A DNA stretch of 62,250 nt, counting the filler, from Circinaria calcarea (taxonomy: Eukaryota), in assembly GCA_051942165.1 (NCBI GenBank). It is 8 parts of 8 records of this genome, joined end to end, with 100 filler letters (N's around TTAATTAATTAA, not from the genome) between each part and the next. Parts side by side here need not be neighbours in the genome. Positions count along the whole stretch, not along the records: positions 15,606 to 23,306 come from JAVECS010001267.1; 7 more parts are not named here. The stretch is one strand, 5' to 3'. Below are positions 7,704 to 23,306 of the stretch, one piece after another; the stretch's first letter is position 1; each line of letters begins with the position of its first letter. Made by a program: the position numbers and the translations under genes. The notes below the pieces were generated by a model. That model saw nothing but the letters and a program-made list of their open reading frames with translations. It did not search any database and was not told the origin of the DNA.

Positions 7704-7803
7704 NNNNNNNNNNNNNNNNNNNNNNNNNNNNNNNNNNNNNNNNNNNNTTAATTAATTAANNNNNNNNNNNNNNNNNNNNNNNNNNNNNNNNNNNNNNNNN
7801 NNN
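7704..7803. other. artificial contig-joining spacer
   Basis: 44 N + TTAATTAATTAA (stops in all six frames) + 44 N. Confidence 0.99.
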
Positions 7804-9124: not shown

Positions 9125-13174
<4,050 letters not shown>

Positions 13175-14042
13175 TTTGTGAGGAGTGCGTACTCCCAAGA
13201 GTTCACGAGACTTTCGAAATTTTTCGACCTGATCTGGGAGTGAATGGATGTTTTTCAGGCGTTATATTGAGAGGGTCACATGGGGCCTACGATTGTAGTT
13301 TGAGTGTGCGCAAAGTCTGAGCGTCTTAAAACCCCGTTTACCGCTTCTAGGGCCGTCGATAAAATAAGGCGCAGGAGGTGGTAGATATGATGACGAAGAG
13401 AGGCGGAAGGAATGCTCCCGGTGAGTCTCGCCGGGTGGGAGAGTGAATGGCACGTTGAACAATTCGAGCCAGACGATAGTGAAGAAAAGAGTCGGTCAAT
13501 CTAAATCCTCACAGTTCTCTGTCTCGGGCAAGACCAAGAGGTACACGCTGGATTGTCGGCACGTTCGTCATCGGCTCGTCAAAGCAGCAAGACACCGAGG
13601 GGACTATAGATAGGTATTCTACATACTCTGTGCGCAAACGGGATCCCGGCTTAACATTCTCTATGCTGGTTATCCCGAGTCAAAGCTTCAGGAAATGGAC
13701 CTCGTTGCAGGCCGATCTACTATGCGACAGGAGGTTGTCAGCCTATATAAAAGCAATTCAAGTTACGTGCGGGGAAGATAGATTTTCTCAATGTTCGATC
13801 GCATGTACATTTACAACCGGTCCTGCCTAGAATATCTGGTTTGCGGGGCCAGCAGACTCCAACGCCCAGCCCAAGCGTCCGCATGCTCTACACCAACTCC
13901 AATTGGGCAGACAATTGGGCAGAACAATTGATGTAAAGTTCATTTAGGATGAAGTATCGACCCTAGTTGCGAAAGTTTGGTCTTCTCGAGTTCTTAGATA
14001 CCGGCCAAGCCGATTCTCCTCCATCCGCATGGCAGTTCTGAG

Positions 14043-15505
14043 ATGCTACACTCCAAACCCAGGCGCGTCGAGCCAAATGCCTGGGCCAGAAAGGCCGGTG
14101 GTTCCCATAGTCTGACGTCTGCAGCACCTCCATGGCGACCGGCTGCGATCCTGGACGAGTAGGTACCATCCTCCCAGAGCCGTGTGTGTGACACAGCTCT
14201 AATGCCTGGCAACTAGATGGGTGCAAAAGGAAGCCAGGCCCATCAGCCTACGCCAATTGACCTTCTTCGGGAGGACCTTGACTGAGAATCGGCTGAAGAG
14301 TTCCGCCAACTACGTGCGGACGGAGCTTCCGACGAGGTCAACCTCTGTCGTATGCCCTAGCCTTTCCACACACTAACCTGACGACAGACTTGCTCATCGG
14401 CTCCGTGACATGCAAACATTGCCCTATGTGGTGGTAACCAACTCCCACATGTCGCACGTCTACGAGCTTTACTATAAAGCTTTCGAAACGTTGCGGAGGG
14501 TTCGAGAGATCAAGACGGTCGAAGACAACGATAGATACTGTGCAGTTATCAGCGAAACTCTTCGGGAGCATTTGACCGTCATACCTAGACTCGCAATGGG
14601 CGTGTTGGAGTGTCAGCATCTCATGCGCCCAGAGGATATGGACAAGTTCATGAACACGCTCCTCCGATCTGTTTGAACCCCTTCCACACCTCTTGAAATC
14701 TGACTGATCTGTTCCCCAGCGCATTTCTCGTCGAGTCATAGCCGAACAGCACCTTGCGTTAACCGAGACGTTTAATTCACCATGGCACTTTCCTGACGTC
14801 AAGAACGACCTCGAATCCAATGCCGACTTTGTGGGGGAGGTCTTCTTGCGGTGCAATGCGCGCGAAGTGGTGGAGAGCTGTGCGCGGATGGCACAGAAGC
14901 TGGCCATGCAGGCAAACGCTTCGAATGATATGATACCCAAGATTACCATCAATGGCCACCTCGACGCCACCTTCCCGTATATCTTAAGCCATCTAGAATA
15001 CATCGTTGGTGAACTACTCCGTAACTCTATACAGGCTGTGATAGAGCGGTTCAAGGACTCGCCCGGCAAACCACCGCCGATAGACGTTCTCATTTGCGAA
15101 GCTCCTCAGCATGTGATCATTAGGATCTCCGATCAAGGTGGTGGAGTTGCAAGAGAGCTTTTGCCGTACCTGTGGTCGTTTAGTAAAGGACCGTACAGCG
15201 AGACCCGCCTGAGGAATCTGAACCAAGTCCCCAAAATGGCTGCGACCATGCAAGAGTTAAAGTGTCCGGAACCAGCAACGCTCGAGTCTGCTACCAAAGC
15301 TCTTCATGTTAACAACAAGCCTGCACAAGTCAACTCACTGAGCTCGCTCACCTCGCGCCCACCAGATTTGAAACTCGGCATGGGCCTGCCAATGAGCAGA
15401 GTCTATGCAGAATACTGGGCTGGAAGCTTGGAACTCCATAGCTTGGAAGGCTATGGGGTCGATGCCTTCCTCCAGATTTCCAAACTTGGCAATAAGAACG
15501 AGCAA
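14043..15505 (+). CDS. mitochondrial pyruvate/branched-chain alpha-ketoacid dehydrogenase kinase (3'-truncated)
   Basis: WRPAAILDE|WVQKEARPISLRQLTFFG; ELPTR|LAHRLRDMQTLP; RISRRVIAEQHLAL; GHKL motifs ELLRNSIQA, IRISDQGGGV, LGMGLPMSRVYAEYWAG; three introns; runs into spacer. Confidence 0.93.
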
Positions 15506-15605
15506 NNNNNNNNNNNNNNNNNNNNNNNNNNNNNNNNNNNNNNNNNNNNTTAATTAATTAANNNNNNNNNNNNNNNNNNNNNNNNNNNNNNNNNNNNNNN
15601 NNNNN
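15506..15605. other. artificial contig-joining spacer
   Basis: N44-TTAATTAATTAA-N44. Confidence 0.99.
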
Positions 15606-16193
15606 GGGGAAGGCAACTAAATCGCAAGAAAGAAAAACCCCCGGGGTATGGGGGTGATGGCAACCCCCCCTTTGTAATCTTCCAATTTTCGTAGAAAAGC
15701 TATTTACAAATTCGTATATCAAACGGAGGTTTATCAAAACGCGGAAATGCAAAGAGGGACAAACACCCTCCAACACTCTCGGGTTGTCACTGTTGGATAT
15801 CTATTACATTACTCTACATCGTGTAGAGTACAAGCGCTACTCCTTATCTCCACCCTCCCCGCCCGTGTTTGATGTCCGCATGCCTGCATCAGATCCTGGA
15901 TGCGAGTCCAAGGGTGAGAATGTCATGCTATAAGAAAATTTATGGTGAAAAATGCCGGGATATATTAGTACAGCGAAGAAGAAGATTGAGGGCGAGTTAC
16001 ATAGAGGTATGTCGAGGTCTCCAACCTCTCGGCTTCTAGTGTGTCCGTATTCATGACGCTACGCCCGAGGGGAGAGAACGTTAGAATGTTAACCCTGACT
16101 ACCCGTAGATTTCACCTTGGCAGAAGGCTACAAAGCAAAGGGTGTCGCCAACGACCGTGGAATAGCCATGCAATCAGCCTGCAAGGAAAAGCC

Positions 16194-17400
16194 TTATGCT
16201 TTCCTCGACCTTGTGCTAGGACCATTGGATATCCTTCCAGACGCATTAGCATCTCCATTGGACTTGATCGCTCGGTTGCCATGACTGGTAGAATCCACTG
16301 TGGGAACCTCCAACCTACTCATGTCTATCACGGCTTTCTTAGCAGTTCCACTCCTCTTTCGACCTTTTTGGCCGGTTTTCTTGTAGGTTGCCAGGTAAAA
16401 GGAGATGAAGAGTAACAGGTAGGAACTGAGTATGGTCATCCCGGCGACAGCGGCAAACTCCTCGCCAGCGCATTCACCGGCATTCAGGACCCATGGAAAG
16501 TATGTGGAGGTATAGTATGTGTAAGATGCAAAGTATACGAAGCCTGCCAGTTCGTTGGTAAGCGTTCAATGGTGAATAGAATCGTCTTTATAAACGCTTA
16601 CCAAGGTCAACTATAAATTGAAGAATTTGAAGGCGCGTGATCCATTCCTTCCACCAGATGCGAATGCCTCGTGCGCTTTGAAAATAGTACCAGTACATGA
16701 CAACATGGACGAGAAGGTTGAATGTGATGGGAACCCAAGAAACAGGGGTCAGGCCGGCGAGTTGCGTGTAGCACAAAAGGGCGGTGGCTCCGTGGTGATA
16801 AGTGTGCAGGAAGGCTATTACGGTCAGCCACGGTCCTTAGCATAAGCGGTCAGTGATCTTACTGAGGGGTTTCTTCTTCAGAACAAGAAACACAGTATCA
16901 ATCAATTCAATGTACTTGGTAATGTAATTAAGCTGATATCTCGTTAGCCCCATAGCTTCGCATCCTCCCAGTCTCCAACCTACATAATATAACGTAACCA
17001 GTTTGTGCGTCCACCCTCCGTTGTGATCGCAGATCGCATAAAAGATCCCATGCCTCCAAACCGTGGGGAGTAGCTGCTCGATGAAAAGCGCAAGCAGACC
17101 TCCACTGATTATTGTCAGATAGAGATTGTGTAATATGAACAAGCCATTGAGCTTGAAGGCAGGTCGACTCTTCATCAATTCTCTCCCACCAAGAACGATA
17201 ATGTAGTATGATGACAGAACTGCCACCGTCTCCTTCAGCGTCGATATCGGAGTCGTACCCGGTATGAACCGGAAGTCCTGTGGGGTAAAGGTTCGGAAGG
17301 TTGTCCATAGCTTCTCGAAGATTGGCCATACTTCAATCGCGAAAGGTCGATCGAGAGTCGGAAGAGGAAAAGGCACGGATTTCAGCGCGCCGGAGGCCAT
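16194..17400 (-). CDS. very-long-chain fatty acid elongase (GNS1/SUR4/ELO family)
   Basis: Multi-[26 protein letters not shown] histidine box, [23 protein letters not shown]; three introns; basic C-terminus TRSRKA. Confidence 0.95.
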
Positions 17401-18505
17401 CTTATTGGTTTTGCGCCCAGGAGGACTGGTTGTCGACAAAATCAAAGGCTGAGGCTGAGAAAAACCGTTGAGCCTCGTACGAAAGTAGAAGAAGGCGCGT
17501 CACTGGCGTTTTCGCGGAAAACGTATCGCGATCGATTAATTGGGCGCTACGACGAAGTGAGGATAGACAAAGGGTTCAAAGGAGTGACAAAGAATGAATA
17601 AGAAGATGTGATGACAACGGCGGGAAGTTCAATTGCTCTTACTGCCAGCTGCTGATTACTTTTGCGATTGGGAAAATGAAATGTTGTTCGGATTATTAGG
17701 AAAAAGGGGAGGGTCGGGTTCAACGGACCGAGGAGCCGAGGTAAGCGAAAAGACGACGGAAGCGGCTCTAAACCGACGCTACTCCGTAGGCGGATTACTA
17801 CCGTACCGGTCGGGTGAATCACAAATGTTAGGGTGATTTCTGCGCAAGAATTATAATAGGCTCAAACCACACTCTCAAGCTTGCAGAATGAGCCGAAATA
17901 GTCAGCGGAGGATGGCCTTAGTACTAGTCGTCTGTTTTCCCTAGACTTTCTTGTCTTTTTTGATGAGTACACAGAGGGTCCGTGGTCTCGGCTATTGCGT
18001 TTCTTCGCCAATCGCTCAAGCGCTCCAACGTCTCTTGTGACAACCGTCAAAGGTCGAGGTCAGCATATACAAACTATCGAGCGTCGTAAACGGAAATGCT
18101 GGCTCGTCTGGATTACGCCTGAAGTGAGGTAGATCCTTTTCCTTCACTTTACTCCCGAAGTCTGTGTGGGTTAGCACTTGCTCAACTCGTAGCTTCGATT
18201 TCAAATGTATTATTACAGAACGAACAATCTTTTTCTAGCTCTTAAGTTGCCTTTTAAGCTTTTGCTGCTATCCCTTTGATGACTGGTCTATCGATATATC
18301 TATTAAACAATAATGAAAGACAATTCAAGGCATATCCTCCTGTACGAGTAATGGTAGTGACAGTGATATAAGCGGTATATATGCTCGGAGATGGACCTTG
18401 AAGCTCCATATGAGCTATGCGTACACTTTACCATAGTAGCTCGAATATAACCCGAATCAAATAACACGAGAGTAAATCATAACAATATACCCTTGATCCC
18501 CCAAA

Positions 18506-20543
18506 CTACTTCCACTGAGCCTTGCCAATACGCTTGGTATGAGGCGGAACGCATACCTCGACCAAAGGGCTTATATCAGGTTCACACATCTCGAACGGTA
18601 TTTTAATCTTGGATTCCACAAGTCGAATTTCCAAGTCAAGACGTCGGTTGCCAGTCTTCCAAGTCAGAGTCAGCGGTTTACATTCAGCAGCACCCATGAA
18701 GGCCCATCTGGACGCAAGATATCGTTTTTGTAGCCGCACTTGACATAATACTCTCTGTTCTCCATCATCAGAGCCTTCAAATCTGTCATGATGTTGGTTT
18801 AGGGCCAAAAGAACGAGAGTAAGGTAGTAGTATCCGCCTTCTGCGGGGTAGTGGTCGAAACTGATGTTGACGGACAGAGGGTTACGAGCATCCTGTAACA
18901 TAGTTCAGCAAAGCAATTATCTTCCCTTTCCAGTCCTTACCCCTTTGAGTGGATAAACATCAGTTCTCGATCGAGTCTCTGAGTTATCGCCGATCCAGGA
19001 CAGACTGGATGTGCTGGCCAGGTCGTATACTCGTTCGCCGCAGACGAGGCCAAGGCTGTAATCCTCAAAAACAGGTCGGCGACGTAACCGAAGACATCCC
19101 CCATTCGAAACTGCGAGCTCTCTAGAGACAGGTCAGTTGTATGACATTCAACCCAGGAAGGAGATCCCTACGGATCTTGAGCGATGTGAATCTTCGTCTT
19201 GGAACAGTGATTGAGATACTGGGCCGCAGAGGGGAGCATCTCCGTGAAGGCGTTTCGTGCTTGTGCCATACGAAAGTATCCTCCGCAACCTACAAGATGA
19301 TTCTGTGTACAGTTAGTAATCTTCCAGCGACAAAACTAACGGCGAGCGGTGCTTGCCAGGGGTTTTTTGTAGGCCTGCATTGCCTTGAGAACGGCCCGCT
19401 GCACGCGAGCTATAGTCTCGTGAAATATATCTCGGAGATCTTCCCTATGTTCTACTCAATATCGATTTGCAGATAATCCCGGTACCGGTTTATTTACCTG
19501 GTTAATTCGAGCCACCCTTCTCTGATGCCAGCAGCCTCGCTGTCGATTAGCCTCTTTAAAGGAAATTTAGTGGACTCAGACCCATCGCCGTAACGTTTGA
19601 AGGTATACCATGCGTAGCTTTCTCGCAGATCCCGCGAGATTTTTGCGGCATCAAATTGAAGATCCTGTATGAGGGATAGTCGTTGTTTAACAAAGTCCTG
19701 GAAGGCAACATCTATATCAGTGGCACCAGTCGCTTTCCCCTGACAATTCCATTCAAGCTCGAATCGTATTGGATCATTAGCATCTGCAACGGCCCTTACA
19801 ACAGCAATATCAACAGTACCCCCGCCAACGTCACAAACCATCACACTCTCGCCGTCCTTCACCTTTTCCGCGATTTGCCCAGCGGCATATAGTGCTGCCG
19901 CTTGAGCCTCATTCGTTGACAAGTTCACCAAGTGGGACCTTTGGTCATTTTGATATCCCGCCGCGATTATGCACTCTCGAAAACTCTCAACATCTGCAGC
20001 CGTCCATGTAGTTGGCCATGTGAATCGGAATTCAATACGCATTGTATCCCATGATAGTTCAACTTGGCCTTTTAGTATCTCTACCTGCACCTTGTCGTGA
20101 AGCTTTCGAAGGTAGTCGATATACCATCGCCGTACCTCTGAATCAGACTTGGGAAGGTATGCCGCCGTTACTAGACTTGCCGCCTGGAGGTAATCCGAGT
20201 TCAGGTATGGTTTGAACCACTCCACTATCTTGGAGTGCTCTCCCTCGATCACTGTGTCCGAGCCTTCGCTAGCCTGAAAGCCCCATGATGTGAGATGACC
20301 ACCTGATGGACTCGAACAAGCCTCGTATCTGAGTACTGTGGGTATTTTCGTTGTGGCTTTGAATGTAGCTTTACCAGCCTCTTCCGCCCAGTCCAGCCGG
20401 TGTATCGTCTTGTGTGGTCGTCGGGTATACGCCACACCTAATACTTGATTAATTGATATACGTGTTTTCAGGTCATTTCTGTTACCTGTAGAGGTCATGC
20501 CCAAGTCAATGCTGACTACAACGTCCACGGACATTTTCGACAT
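18506..20543 (-). CDS. atypical Hsp70-family (HSPA12-like) actin-fold ATPase, ~594 aa
   Basis: Exons 20543-20486, 20437-19498, 19444-19357, 19302-19172, 19121-18941, 18892-18506 splice into one open frame. Motifs IDLGMTSTGVAY, TWPTTW, NEAQAAA, VCDVGGGTVDI, LVGCGG, PELAVSNG. Divergent C-terminal domain, no EEVD, no signal peptide. Confidence 0.88.
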
Positions 20544-20841
20544 CGCCCGTATGGTAAAGTGTATGGTTATCAAAAGCTGTATTTCCCGTAACCCGCCATG
20601 CATCAAAGGGTATTCTGGGTTAAAAGTTAGGCTGAAGAGGAGATAGATATATGATTATCAAGATATAAAGAAAACAGAAAACAGAAAAAACAAGTCTGTT
20701 TACCAATGGGTACGGTAGAACATCATTTAATCAAACATCCAATGCTGCAGCACAAACAACATTCCCGAGACCTCTCTCGGAAAGCAGCGCAAGCAATCTG
20801 GGGATCGTAGATCGAAGGACATTCTCCACATATCTGCACAA

Positions 20842-21210
20842 GCGCCGAACTCAGACTTCAAAGCATGGCCATTTTGGGTGAAATGTTGCAGCGGTATGCA
20901 ATTATATTTCTTTGTCCTTTCGATCTGCTGTCCCCTATTTTGTCGCTTCACGTATGCGTACCAGCGCCGAATCCGGACTTGAGGGTAGGACGGTTTCAGG
21001 TGAGAGTGTTGCGGCAGCCTGCATCTTGATTTTTTGTTCCTTGGAATTGGTGTCCTGCAATTTTGACGCACCATATATATGCACCATCGTCGAAACCCAG
21101 ACTTGAGGGAAATTATGTTTCAGGTGAGAGTATTGCGGCTGACGGAGTTAAGATTTCCTTGTCATTTAATTCGGTGACTTTGTCTGCACGCCTCCGAATT
21201 TCACGTGGAG
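20842..21210. repeat. three degenerate ~123-bp tandem units
   Basis: Units start at 20842, 20964 and 21087; units 2 and 3 share GACTTGAGGG-N7-GTTTCAGGTGAGAGTRTTGCGGC; unit 1 is more diverged but collinear. Confidence 0.75.
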
Positions 21211-21504
21211 AAGTGACCTTGTTCTACTTCGCCCACATCCTTGGCGCTCCCTCCGATGTCTGCGCCGACACTGATAAGTGTTGAGCGACCCGAAACTCCA
21301 ACTTCAGAGCATCAAGACAGCTGGCGGTGACCGAGAGAAAAAAGGGGCTCTGCAGCGTTTGGCTGGGTTGAGAGTGGCAGGACCGCATGCAGAGTTTTCT
21401 TTGTTTTCCTGATATGTGCATGCCTTCAAAGTAAATTCACCCCATTTAAAATGAACAAGATCCACTCCATTCTACCACTCACCGAACATTAATCGTCATT
21501 CAAT

Positions 21505-22492
21505 ATGAATGGACCTCGTTTAGCAGGACTGCTTACCGGAGTGGCAATTGGCACATTGATCTTAGGCTGTCTGTTTACGTGGGTTATCACGTGGGCGATT
21601 GGCCAAAGGCGCCAAAAGCTCGCCCGGGACCTCGAAGCAACCAAGGCGGTCTTACGATCAGGTCGACACTACACTCTTGAACTCCTCGAAGATCCTCCCA
21701 GAGATCATGATGCCTTTCTAGCGATGCAACACTTGCGCATGTATATGCGGAACATTTCCGGACACTGTAGCGACAAATGCAGCATTTCATCTCCACCAAT
21801 ATCCGATTCACGGCTCCAAAGTTACCTAACCGAATTAAGTGGGGGCGACTATCGACTCTCGTCACAGAGCCTCCTAGAGCTCGTTCCAAGCTGGAAGCGT
21901 GCCTTTGTGAGCCATGTAGTTACCACTACGCTCATCGGTGCAATTACCGACCATGCAAAGTCACCGATGACCATATTGCATTCGGCGCTTTCTCCGGCAT
22001 TGACCGCAACGCGCCCGACTCAAGATCCTGAAGGTAGGTCCCAAATTCCTCCCTGGCTAAACTTGCTCCTCACTGTTCAACGCAGACCAAGAAGACCGAA
22101 GACGCGTTCTCGCTTTGATACGCAACTGCGTCAACACCGTACACGTTGTAGAGTCTAATGAGGAAGAAATCGATCGCCTCAAGAAGGTGTTGACTAATCT
22201 GATCGGAGAGGTATTCGGCTCCGCTGTAATCGATGATAAGGACTTTCAGGGATACCTGCGCTCAGCCTTTAATGCAGCGATTAAGCTGGGCTCCATCCTC
22301 TTGCATCATCCGGCAGAATTCCGCTTCGACTGGACTGCCGATGCGCCGGCCAGCGAGAAGCCAGTCACGATGTTCCCGTGGTTGTATCGGGTAACCGACA
22401 TGACGGGAGTAGTCGAAACGCAGCCATTACTCATTGATTCTGGGGCCGTCGCGCTCACAGCGGCGGGCAAAGCATTATACGTGGACCTTTGA
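21505..22492 (+). CDS. single-pass membrane protein of unknown function, 311 aa
   Basis: Exons 21505-22033 and 22086-22492 (GTAGGT...CTAAAC...CAG intron, frame preserved); N-terminal TM (LAGLLTGVAIGTLILGCLFTWVITWAI) then basic QRRQK; C-terminal AAIKLGSILLHHPAEFRFDW...VTMFPWLYRVTDMTG. Confidence 0.8.
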
Positions 22493-23306
22493 TCTGGGCT
22501 ACGCTAGCCGTGGGAGACCGAGTATTTGAGAAAATCAGCTGTTTAGCCACCAGTCGGTGCGGTCAGTGCTTTGTAGCTCACTCTTATAGGAGGAGGTGGA
22601 TTCATGGGCAGTGCGTGCTTATCCCCTGTATAATCATCGTTTGGAGTTCGAGAGTAACGGCTATTTTTCCAATTCATTGCCCCTGGAATATTCTCCATCA
22701 CCGTGAAGCGTGCTCCGTCGTGAACAAGGGCAGTGTAAACCAGTTGGTGGAAAAGGTCCGCGACCCCATAGTAACGGGTATGTAGATGATCTACCTCCGT
22801 TGAAGCAGGGTGGCAGGGTAGGAAGAATCGTAGAGTAGAAAAATCTTATTACGGGTGCGAGTATATCCGCGCTCCACAGTACACCATATCCCATCTTGCC
22901 CTCAGCGTGAGCTGTAAGTCACCGTGTTACCCTGCCCAGAAAGTCAAAAAGGGTAGAATATCCCAGGTAACCTACTTGACGAGTAAGCAATGTCTTCCAC
23001 TCCGACACGTCCAAGATTCATGCCTGTCAACCTCTACAGTTTCCATGCATTTACTTCCGACCAAGTTACCTGGAACATGTTGTGGCACAGGTGAAAAGTA
23101 TTATGCTATTGAGTACATGAATTCCACAGGAACATTAATGGTACAGCACGCGTCAATACACTGTCCCCCCCTTCTCTCCGCTTCCCTACTCATTGTCAAG
23201 ACCTCTCTGCCCAAGGCTTCTTGGCAAATCCTCCTCTCCCAGCTGCAACACCAAGGGTGGGCATGTCTTGGATTGCCTAGCGAGACGGGTTAGCAAGCAT
23301 GTCTGC

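Follow-up and report, generated by a model that had tools for sequence, protein, structure and literature searches.

The question raised by this locus is whether an atypical Hsp70 gene (gene A) and a gene for a small membrane protein (gene B), which stand head-to-head in Circinaria calcarea (assembly GCA_051942165.1), belong together and, if so, in what kind of system. The stretch of DNA analysed, hereafter the window, is 62,250 nucleotides long and consists of eight contigs joined by N spacers; both genes lie on a single contig of 7,701 bases (15606-23306). Gene A comprises six exons on the minus strand (20543-18506) and encodes 594 residues followed by a single terminal stop, while gene B comprises two exons on the plus strand (21505-22492) and encodes 311 residues without any internal stop. 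The start codons are separated by 961 bp. Both proteins are present in the protein collection, with the label Circinaria calcarea MAG and under consecutive locus tags, B being identical to P0001. A first-pass annotation of this DNA had described the same layout, namely an intact Hsp70-fold ATPase of about 594 residues transcribed divergently, about 960 bp away on the same contig, from an intact 311-residue protein with one transmembrane segment.

Recurrence and co-inheritance of the pair

The pairing of A and B is not due to chance: the two genes form a recurrent, co-inherited module. The assembly contains a second, paralogous pair: P0003 shares 51% identity with A and P0014 37% with B, and the two have consecutive accessions and locus tags on one contig of 10,342 bases. 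Relatives of B were found on contigs of 8 different listed sizes, 4 of which (10342, 7844, 6176 and 20460) recur among the 11 sizes listed for close relatives of A. The two sets of contigs came from separate searches, and a ninth B size, 3,024, is that of a cluster member of P0018. The other 4 contigs with B relatives had no match in size among the A relatives.

The linkage was also searched in metagenomes, with nothing but the Hsp70 alignment as query. From 509 confirmed matches, the best 80 were taken as loci, representing 522 kb. Of the 22 that were of eukaryote type, 11 were informative in that they extended 1.2 kb or more upstream of the Hsp70. Seven B sequences of the lichen lineage were used to build a profile, which matched 4 of the 8,717 reading frames with E<1e-5 (in L001, L007, L008 and L017), each located directly upstream of the Hsp70. 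The B-type gene of L002 was a fifth match, with an E-value of 3.8e-10, when a wider profile built without L002 was used. The survey of recurrent adjacency called for in the first-pass annotation, run here on metagenome loci, thus recovered a B homologue directly upstream of the Hsp70 in 5 of the 11 informative fungal loci, head-to-head in four of them and in tandem in L008. In L004 and L006, a Ser/Thr-rich membrane gene in head-to-head orientation is truncated by the contig end. Profile-profile comparison of both groups of B sequences gave a match with a probability of 97% (E 6e-11) for the C-terminal part and of 83% (E 9e-6) for the N-terminal part.

The two families diverged in parallel. The identity matrices of A and B were correlated over 10 pairs (r 0.93, reached in 0 of 9,999 permutations), and also over the 5 distant pairs taken separately (r 0.88, 2 of 120 permutations). 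Three groups are common to the trees of A and B, namely window+6176, 7844+20460 and L001+L017, with weak support for L001+L017 in B. Linkage is kept down to about 30% identity for A and 18% for B. The second pair in the assembly, the contig matches, the five loci and the congruent trees together bear out the candidate two-gene module of the first-pass annotation.

The coiled-coil partners of a more distant Hsp70 group in L014 (357-1524, minus strand) and L027 (2-763, minus strand) terminate with a helix followed by VFP; visual comparison places this motif colinear with B, at a level that is not significant. These partners match no Pfam family above the cut-off. A frame in L012 (13-747, minus strand), cut by the locus end, matches weakly (E 1) the first helix of the B domain; it starts with MGCGGS, which we take to be a possible lipid anchor. 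L160 is an Hsp70-like match of 26% identity on a 157-kb viral contig.

Gene A encodes a divergent Hsp70-family ATPase

The splicing proposed here, in which a 48-nt intron 1 (20438-20485) and a GC-AG intron 3 (19303-19356) are removed, makes A colinear with P0035, a 594-residue relative labelled Umbilicaria vellea, with 48-63% identity per segment; the colinearity includes the GC-AG third intron. The database model P0002 (608 residues) retains the in-frame intron 1, misses the GC-AG intron 3 and splices differently there.

A is an Hsp70-family ATPase, with phosphate-1, connect-1, phosphate-2, adenosine and connect-2 motifs. All the nucleotide-binding motifs announced at first pass were located: DLGMTST (residues 13-19), EWFK (92-95), NEAQAAA (195-201), CDVGGGTVD (221-229), LVGCGG (365-370) and DPELAVSNGG (405-414). 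In the family profile, the four from NEAQAAA to DPELAVSNGG line up with DnaK motifs; DLGMTST and EWFK were assigned by their likeness to Hsp70 motifs. Two caveats apply. A shares with P0003 and P0035 an adenosine motif with GG-YF, as against GG-LG in P0004 and P0005, and the score of A against Pfam HSP70 (18 bits) is under the cut-off of 20.6 and covers only residues 208-369 of P0002. The family profile, A5, matched 76 solved sequences, and the 60 of them that were listed are all Hsp70-family (best E 8e-7). The best NCBIfam match was prok_dnaK, with E 2.6e-5, far under its cut-off.

A is not a canonical Hsp70 chaperone, as shown by its score under the Pfam cut-off, the lack of EEVD and the lack of a canonical substrate-binding domain by Pfam. 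The protein ends in KAQWK and its last exon has no match in Pfam, in line with the divergent C-terminus without EEVD reported earlier. Residues 421-594 are 48% identical to P0035 and 14-16% identical to P0004 and P0005. The protein is putatively lid-less.

A mosaic was observed between A and P0023. Over exon 2, their identity is 76% for residues 21-277 and 100% for the 55 residues 278-332, a run whose chance is about 3e-7 at the upstream rate. For this stretch, the identity of eight further relatives to A is no more than 29-44%, variability peaks at residues 301-320 (0.31 versus about 0.65), and each of the 11 remaining close pairs shows its lower conservation in the last third. Such a pattern could stem from a chimeric assembly, from gene conversion or from a diverged haplotype block whose end falls within A. 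Residues 278-332 presumably belong to subdomain IIB. GrpE is described as rotating subdomain IIB to open the Hsp70 cleft (PMC4753570).

Gene B encodes a membrane protein of an unnamed family

B has one hydrophobic segment, with a best 19-residue Kyte-Doolittle window of 2.2 at residue 6, followed by basic residues. According to the positive-inside rule, we infer an N-out/C-in topology. The G8-G12-G16 spacing in the membrane helix is only suggestive of dimerisation. P0012 and P0015 begin like B, with only five residues ahead of the membrane segment. The distant homologues of L001, L002, L007, L008 and L017 are interrupted near the site of the B intron, as judged by eye, with junctions computed for L001, L002 and L008.

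Beyond the membrane segment, B is predicted to consist of helices and, at its end, of a short beta region. The helix and beta motifs quoted in the first-pass annotation are present and constitute the most conserved part of the family, so that the described ending stands. Two structure models were of low confidence (predicted local distance difference test, pLDDT, of 65 and 63); in such a model the cytosolic helices would not exceed 25 residues and the beta region would contain two to three strands.

A search among 1.84 billion representatives returned 10 relatives of B, one of them from the same assembly. No family of Pfam, NCBIfam or PADLOC matched B above chance level. In the ESM Atlas, the C-terminal part gave 30 hits with no common Pfam family, the three listed being Ascomycota clusters with scores of 0.93-0.97. 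The nearest named clusters were MIEAP (0.76) and GIL1_IRKI_C (0.75), scores so low that they often arise by chance. The 30 unnamed clusters being far closer, B belongs to an unnamed fungal family. Searches of B and five close relatives for the Pfam families GrpE (PF01025), MIEAP (PF16026) and GIL1_IRKI_C (PF24994) gave no match with E-values up to 1-10, and no alignment was obtained between the B profile and E. coli GrpE (probability 0.1%; a single sequence, low power). B was consequently not assigned to GrpE, MIEAP or GIL1/IRKI. The domain of this kind proposed at first pass was not upheld by these searches, the Atlas scores being the one sign in its favour.

Ectodomain and third gene in related loci

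The membrane proteins of L001, L007, L017, L004 and L006 carry, N-terminal to the membrane segment, 83-213 residues containing 28-49% Ser+Thr. We assume that this stretch resembles the ectodomains of fungal wall sensors of the Mid2/Wsc type. The window lineage of B has no Ser/Thr-rich ectodomain, and no Ser/Thr-rich reading frame or exon was found in the 961-bp spacer.

On the far side of B, each of the 4 B-positive loci long enough to reveal it (L001, L002, L007 and L017) has a third gene. Its N-terminal 140-150 residues form one family, with leave-one-out E-values of 1e-8 to 3e-29, and the first 25 residues are mildly hydrophobic in 3 of the 4 proteins. Among the proteins analysed, the same domain is fused at the N-terminus of the Hsp70 P0005 (E 1.5e-7). 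In the Atlas clusters nearest to the third gene (0.88-0.89), 10-14% of the members carry PF17111 and 11% carry SesA. The first-pass suggestion of stress or non-self signalling is strengthened by the ectodomain of distant B proteins and by this third, helical gene, two elements that it did not contain.

In L017, a NACHT-ankyrin gene of the NOD-like receptor (NLR) type is located about 3 kb downstream of the Hsp70 (11334-15700, plus strand); the frames ahead of it look like an alpha/beta-hydrolase (SesB-like) domain.

Proposed function and alternative explanations

The reading that we favour, with a probability of about 40%, is that A and B are the core of a dedicated fungal signalling module in which a membrane regulator and an Hsp70 switch would serve surface sensing or defence. 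B would sit in the membrane, perhaps as a dimer held by its glycine-spaced helix, and its conserved C-terminal helix and beta head would bind the nucleotide-binding domain of A. It would set the nucleotide state of A in the manner of an exchange factor or trigger, and A would work as a switch rather than as a general chaperone. A could then release or activate the third, helical protein, whose likeliest role is that of an effector acting on membranes in the manner of HeLo/SesA. The outcome would be a stress or non-self response, perhaps with permeabilisation of the membrane, as described for HeLo/HELL proteins (PMC12881547). As the B copy of the window has no ectodomain, it would receive its signal inside the membrane, through a partner or from the cytosolic side.

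A number of observations weigh against this signalling role. On the side of linkage, a B-type gene is absent from 4 of the 11 informative loci: L014 and L027 carry a head-to-head coiled-coil gene with no demonstrable link to B, the weak candidate of L012 (E 1) stands 6 kb upstream of the Hsp70, and nothing recognisable was seen in L019. The B homologue of L002 has no transmembrane segment and that of L008 is in tandem. The correlation of A and B identities is borderline among the five lichen-lineage pairs (r 0.68, 7 of 120 permutations), and linked genes co-diverge anyway, so that parallel divergence indicates inheritance as a unit and not contact. On the side of mechanism, B matches no exchange-factor family by sequence. 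As for the third protein, its HeLo/SesA identity is a lead, not an assignment: Pfam HeLo reached E 0.04 in 2 of the 4 proteins, at 14 bits under a cut-off of 23.2, with no HeLo match in the other 2, and no significant match was obtained among solved structures. Its profile found nothing in the window (best E 0.5), where only 814 bases are left 3' of B before the contig end, about the distance at which the third gene starts in L001 and L017. Residues 1-245 of P0004 form an N-terminal extension of SesA-like appearance, which neither Pfam nor the third-gene profile confirmed; with the latter there was no match and 55 of 100 random frames scored equally well.

The alternative that survives best, although we consider it unlikely, is a specialised chaperone machine in which B, tethered to the membrane, serves A as an adaptor or as an exchange factor acting like GrpE, and A remodels clients at the membrane, with no sensing or death output and with the third protein as co-factor or client. 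It shares all the linkage evidence with the signalling module and is consistent with the solved Hsp70-family sequences matched by the family profile of A, with MIEAP and GIL1_IRKI_C as nearest named Atlas clusters of B, and with the order of elements at the end of B, helix then short strands, which is as in GrpE (PMC4753570). It fits poorly with the absence of any match of B to the GrpE, MIEAP and GIL1_IRKI_C models, with the two to three predicted strands and with the apparent lack of a long coiled-coil stalk. Moreover, housekeeping would not need the Ser/Thr-rich ectodomain of five distant homologues, the rapid divergence or the third-domain fusion.

More elaborate, and rather improbable as a whole, is an immune or damage pathway of new build, in which a single-pass surface receptor bearing a remote GrpE-like cytosolic exchange factor would act on an HSPA12-like Hsp70 and this one on a HeLo/MLKL-like permeabilising effector; the receptor of the lichen lineage would have lost its ectodomain and the pair would recombine like an allorecognition locus. 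In such a pathway, Hsp70 would fill the position that STAND NTPases occupy in NLR signalling.

A polymorphic self/non-self (het-like) or poison-antidote pair, with A and B matched in cis and mismatched versions from different individuals triggering a response, appears doubtful to us. Head-to-head linkage, co-divergence and the NLR gene downstream of the Hsp70 in L017 point in this direction, and the A/P0023 mosaic is what would be expected where a diverged haplotype block comprising B, the spacer and the 5' part of A ends by recombination. P0023, however, is available solely as a protein sequence, and its mosaic with A could equally reflect an assembly chimera or conversion between paralogues. 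In addition, Hsp70 is not mentioned in the accessible text of a fungal cell-death review (PMC12881547) or of an A. fumigatus het-gene paper (term counts of 0).

No more credit than to the het-like pair is given to mere co-regulation, that is a bidirectional promoter and a common pathway with no contact between switch and regulator, B being for example a client of A or both genes answering the same stress. All the linkage data, including the head-to-head orientation in the window and in 4 of the 5 B-positive loci, would fit co-regulation alone; against it, the linkage survives the low identities given above, a duplication and the changed orientation in L008, and the domain fusion of P0005 suggests that the third part, at least, cooperates physically. 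Finally, the chance adjacency of two unrelated genes, compatible with a single contig taken alone and with the 4 unmatched B contigs, can be dismissed in view of the B-type hits, which in 522 kb of loci lie solely directly upstream of Hsp70, of the second pair in the assembly and of the congruent trees.

Comparison with known systems

The animal HSPA12A/B proteins resemble A in having a divergent Hsp70 nucleotide-binding domain and no EEVD, and we presume a kinship between them. The HSPA12-like label of A is provisional and reflects the motifs CDxGGGTxD and EWFK. PF27033 is annotated on the A relatives P0004 and P0033. In a 2026 review, HspA12 is said to lack the helical lid and to be of unknown function (PMC13580251), and a 2008 survey placed HSPA12 in vertebrates only (PMC2266713). 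A linked membrane partner for HSPA12 was not described in those parts of the literature that were examined.

In the DnaK-GrpE and mitochondrial Hsp70-Mge1 systems (PF00012 and PF01025), as with A and B, the linked partner of an Hsp70 has a helix and a small beta region at its end, and dimerisation is a possible common trait. Unlike GrpE, B is membrane-anchored, a compact helical domain appears to take the place of the coiled-coil stalk and no sequence match exists; unlike DnaK, A has no canonical substrate-binding domain by Pfam. MIEAP and GIL1/IRKI are the nearest named clusters to B by language-model features, with no hidden Markov model match, and we take the helix-then-FP-x-L motif of B to resemble them. 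The eukaryotic cytosol is not known to use GrpE, according to PMC4753570.

HeLo (PF14479), HeLo-like (PF17111) and SesA (PF17107) are presented as membrane-targeting or NLR N-terminal domains in PMC12881547. The fungal NLR-HeLo/HELL clusters described there (nwd2/het-S, HELLP) likewise combine a nucleoside triphosphatase (NTPase) with a helical domain, either separate or fused N-terminally. They differ from the present module, in which the NTPase is of Hsp70 type and not a signal transduction ATPase with numerous domains (STAND), the proposed sensor is a membrane protein and the third gene was not seen on the window contig.

In prokaryotes, Hsp70 and GrpE occur in predicted conflict systems of the GAP1-N2 type (Kaur et al. 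2020, PMC7159879). These offer a precedent for an Hsp70 and its exchange factor in predicted defence, but are GTPase-centred and bacterial, and no homology to B was shown. The A family profile also retrieved bacterial Hsp70s, mostly with 22-41% identity in the best segment. DUF2760 (PF10816) was found beside the bacterial Hsp70 in 41 of 58 loci from metagenomes and 63 of 78 from genomes (L024-L079, L082-L159). It stands directly upstream of the atypical Hsp70, and a second Hsp70 of about 900 residues often comes next (with DUF3731 in L029). No paper of the literature searched names DUF2760. Like A and B, the DUF2760 - Hsp70 - Hsp70/DUF3731 operon comprises an Hsp70 with a dedicated small partner. 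DUF2760 was tried as the counterpart of B and rejected, with an hhalign probability of 0.3-0.7% and no Pfam match of B; the B profile found nothing in the 78 bacterial genome loci. As B and DUF2760 do not align, no bacterial counterpart is claimed.

The first-pass annotation knew of no description of such a fungal module, and none combining an Hsp70 with a membrane partner was found in the portions of the literature reached by our searches. The module is real and, within these bounds, undescribed; it builds on the theme of an Hsp70 with a dedicated cofactor, through a mechanism that we infer. The locus adds an ectodomain-less lichen lineage duplicated as a unit, a fusion of the third domain to an Hsp70 with a HeLo/SesA lead, and the mosaic in A. 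A partner that stays linked down to 18% identity is a first candidate for probing the function of such an Hsp70. In the lichen lineage the ectodomain is dispensable, and the two diverged pairs of one assembly allow cognate and non-cognate combinations to be compared. If the third gene were a HeLo-type effector, fungi would possess a route from a membrane receptor to cell death via an Hsp70 switch, which is not mentioned in the available text of PMC12881547.

Feature coordinates and contig context

Table 1. Positions in the window of the exons of A and B and of their main features
Feature	Position	Strand	Content
A exon 1	20486..20543	-	start codon, first strand and phosphate-1 motif DLGMTST; colinear with P0035
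A exon 2	19498..20437	-	most of the Hsp70-type nucleotide-binding domain (EWFK, WPTTW, NEAQAAA, CDVGGGTVD)
A residues 278-332	19500..19664	-	most variable stretch among close relatives; identical to P0023 across 55 residues
A exon 3	19357..19444	-	followed by a 54-nt GC-AG intron (19356-19303); junction PLNHLVGCGG, similar to PLDHLVGCGG of P0035
A exon 4	19172..19302	-	adenosine motif LVGCGG-YF
A exon 5	18941..19121	-	connect-2 motif and beginning of the C-terminal domain
A exon 6	18506..18892	-	divergent C-terminal domain; no EEVD, no Pfam match
Spacer between divergent start codons	20544..21504	.	961 bp
B exon 1	21505..22033	+	five-residue N-terminus, transmembrane segment, basic juxtamembrane stretch and first part of the helical cytosolic domain
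B transmembrane segment	21520..21600	+	about residues 6-32, with G8-G12-G16 spacing
B intron	22034..22085	+	52 nt, phase-1
B exon 2	22086..22492	+	three helices and short beta region; motif L..A..LG..L..[HQ]P...F.W ... FP.L...D..G

N-run / TTAATTAATTAA / N-run spacers occur at 7704-7803 and at six further places, every 7.8 kb or so. They correspond to contig joins, so that the genes on either side of them are not neighbours. Upstream on the contig of A and B is a fatty-acid elongase gene (Pfam ELO). The spacer between the two start codons is presumed to be a promoter shared by A and B. It contains an imperfect direct repeat (20976-21015 and 21100-21139, with 33 of 40 bases identical, 124 bp apart), a possible shared regulatory element, inside which the splice-like word CAG/GTGAG is present.

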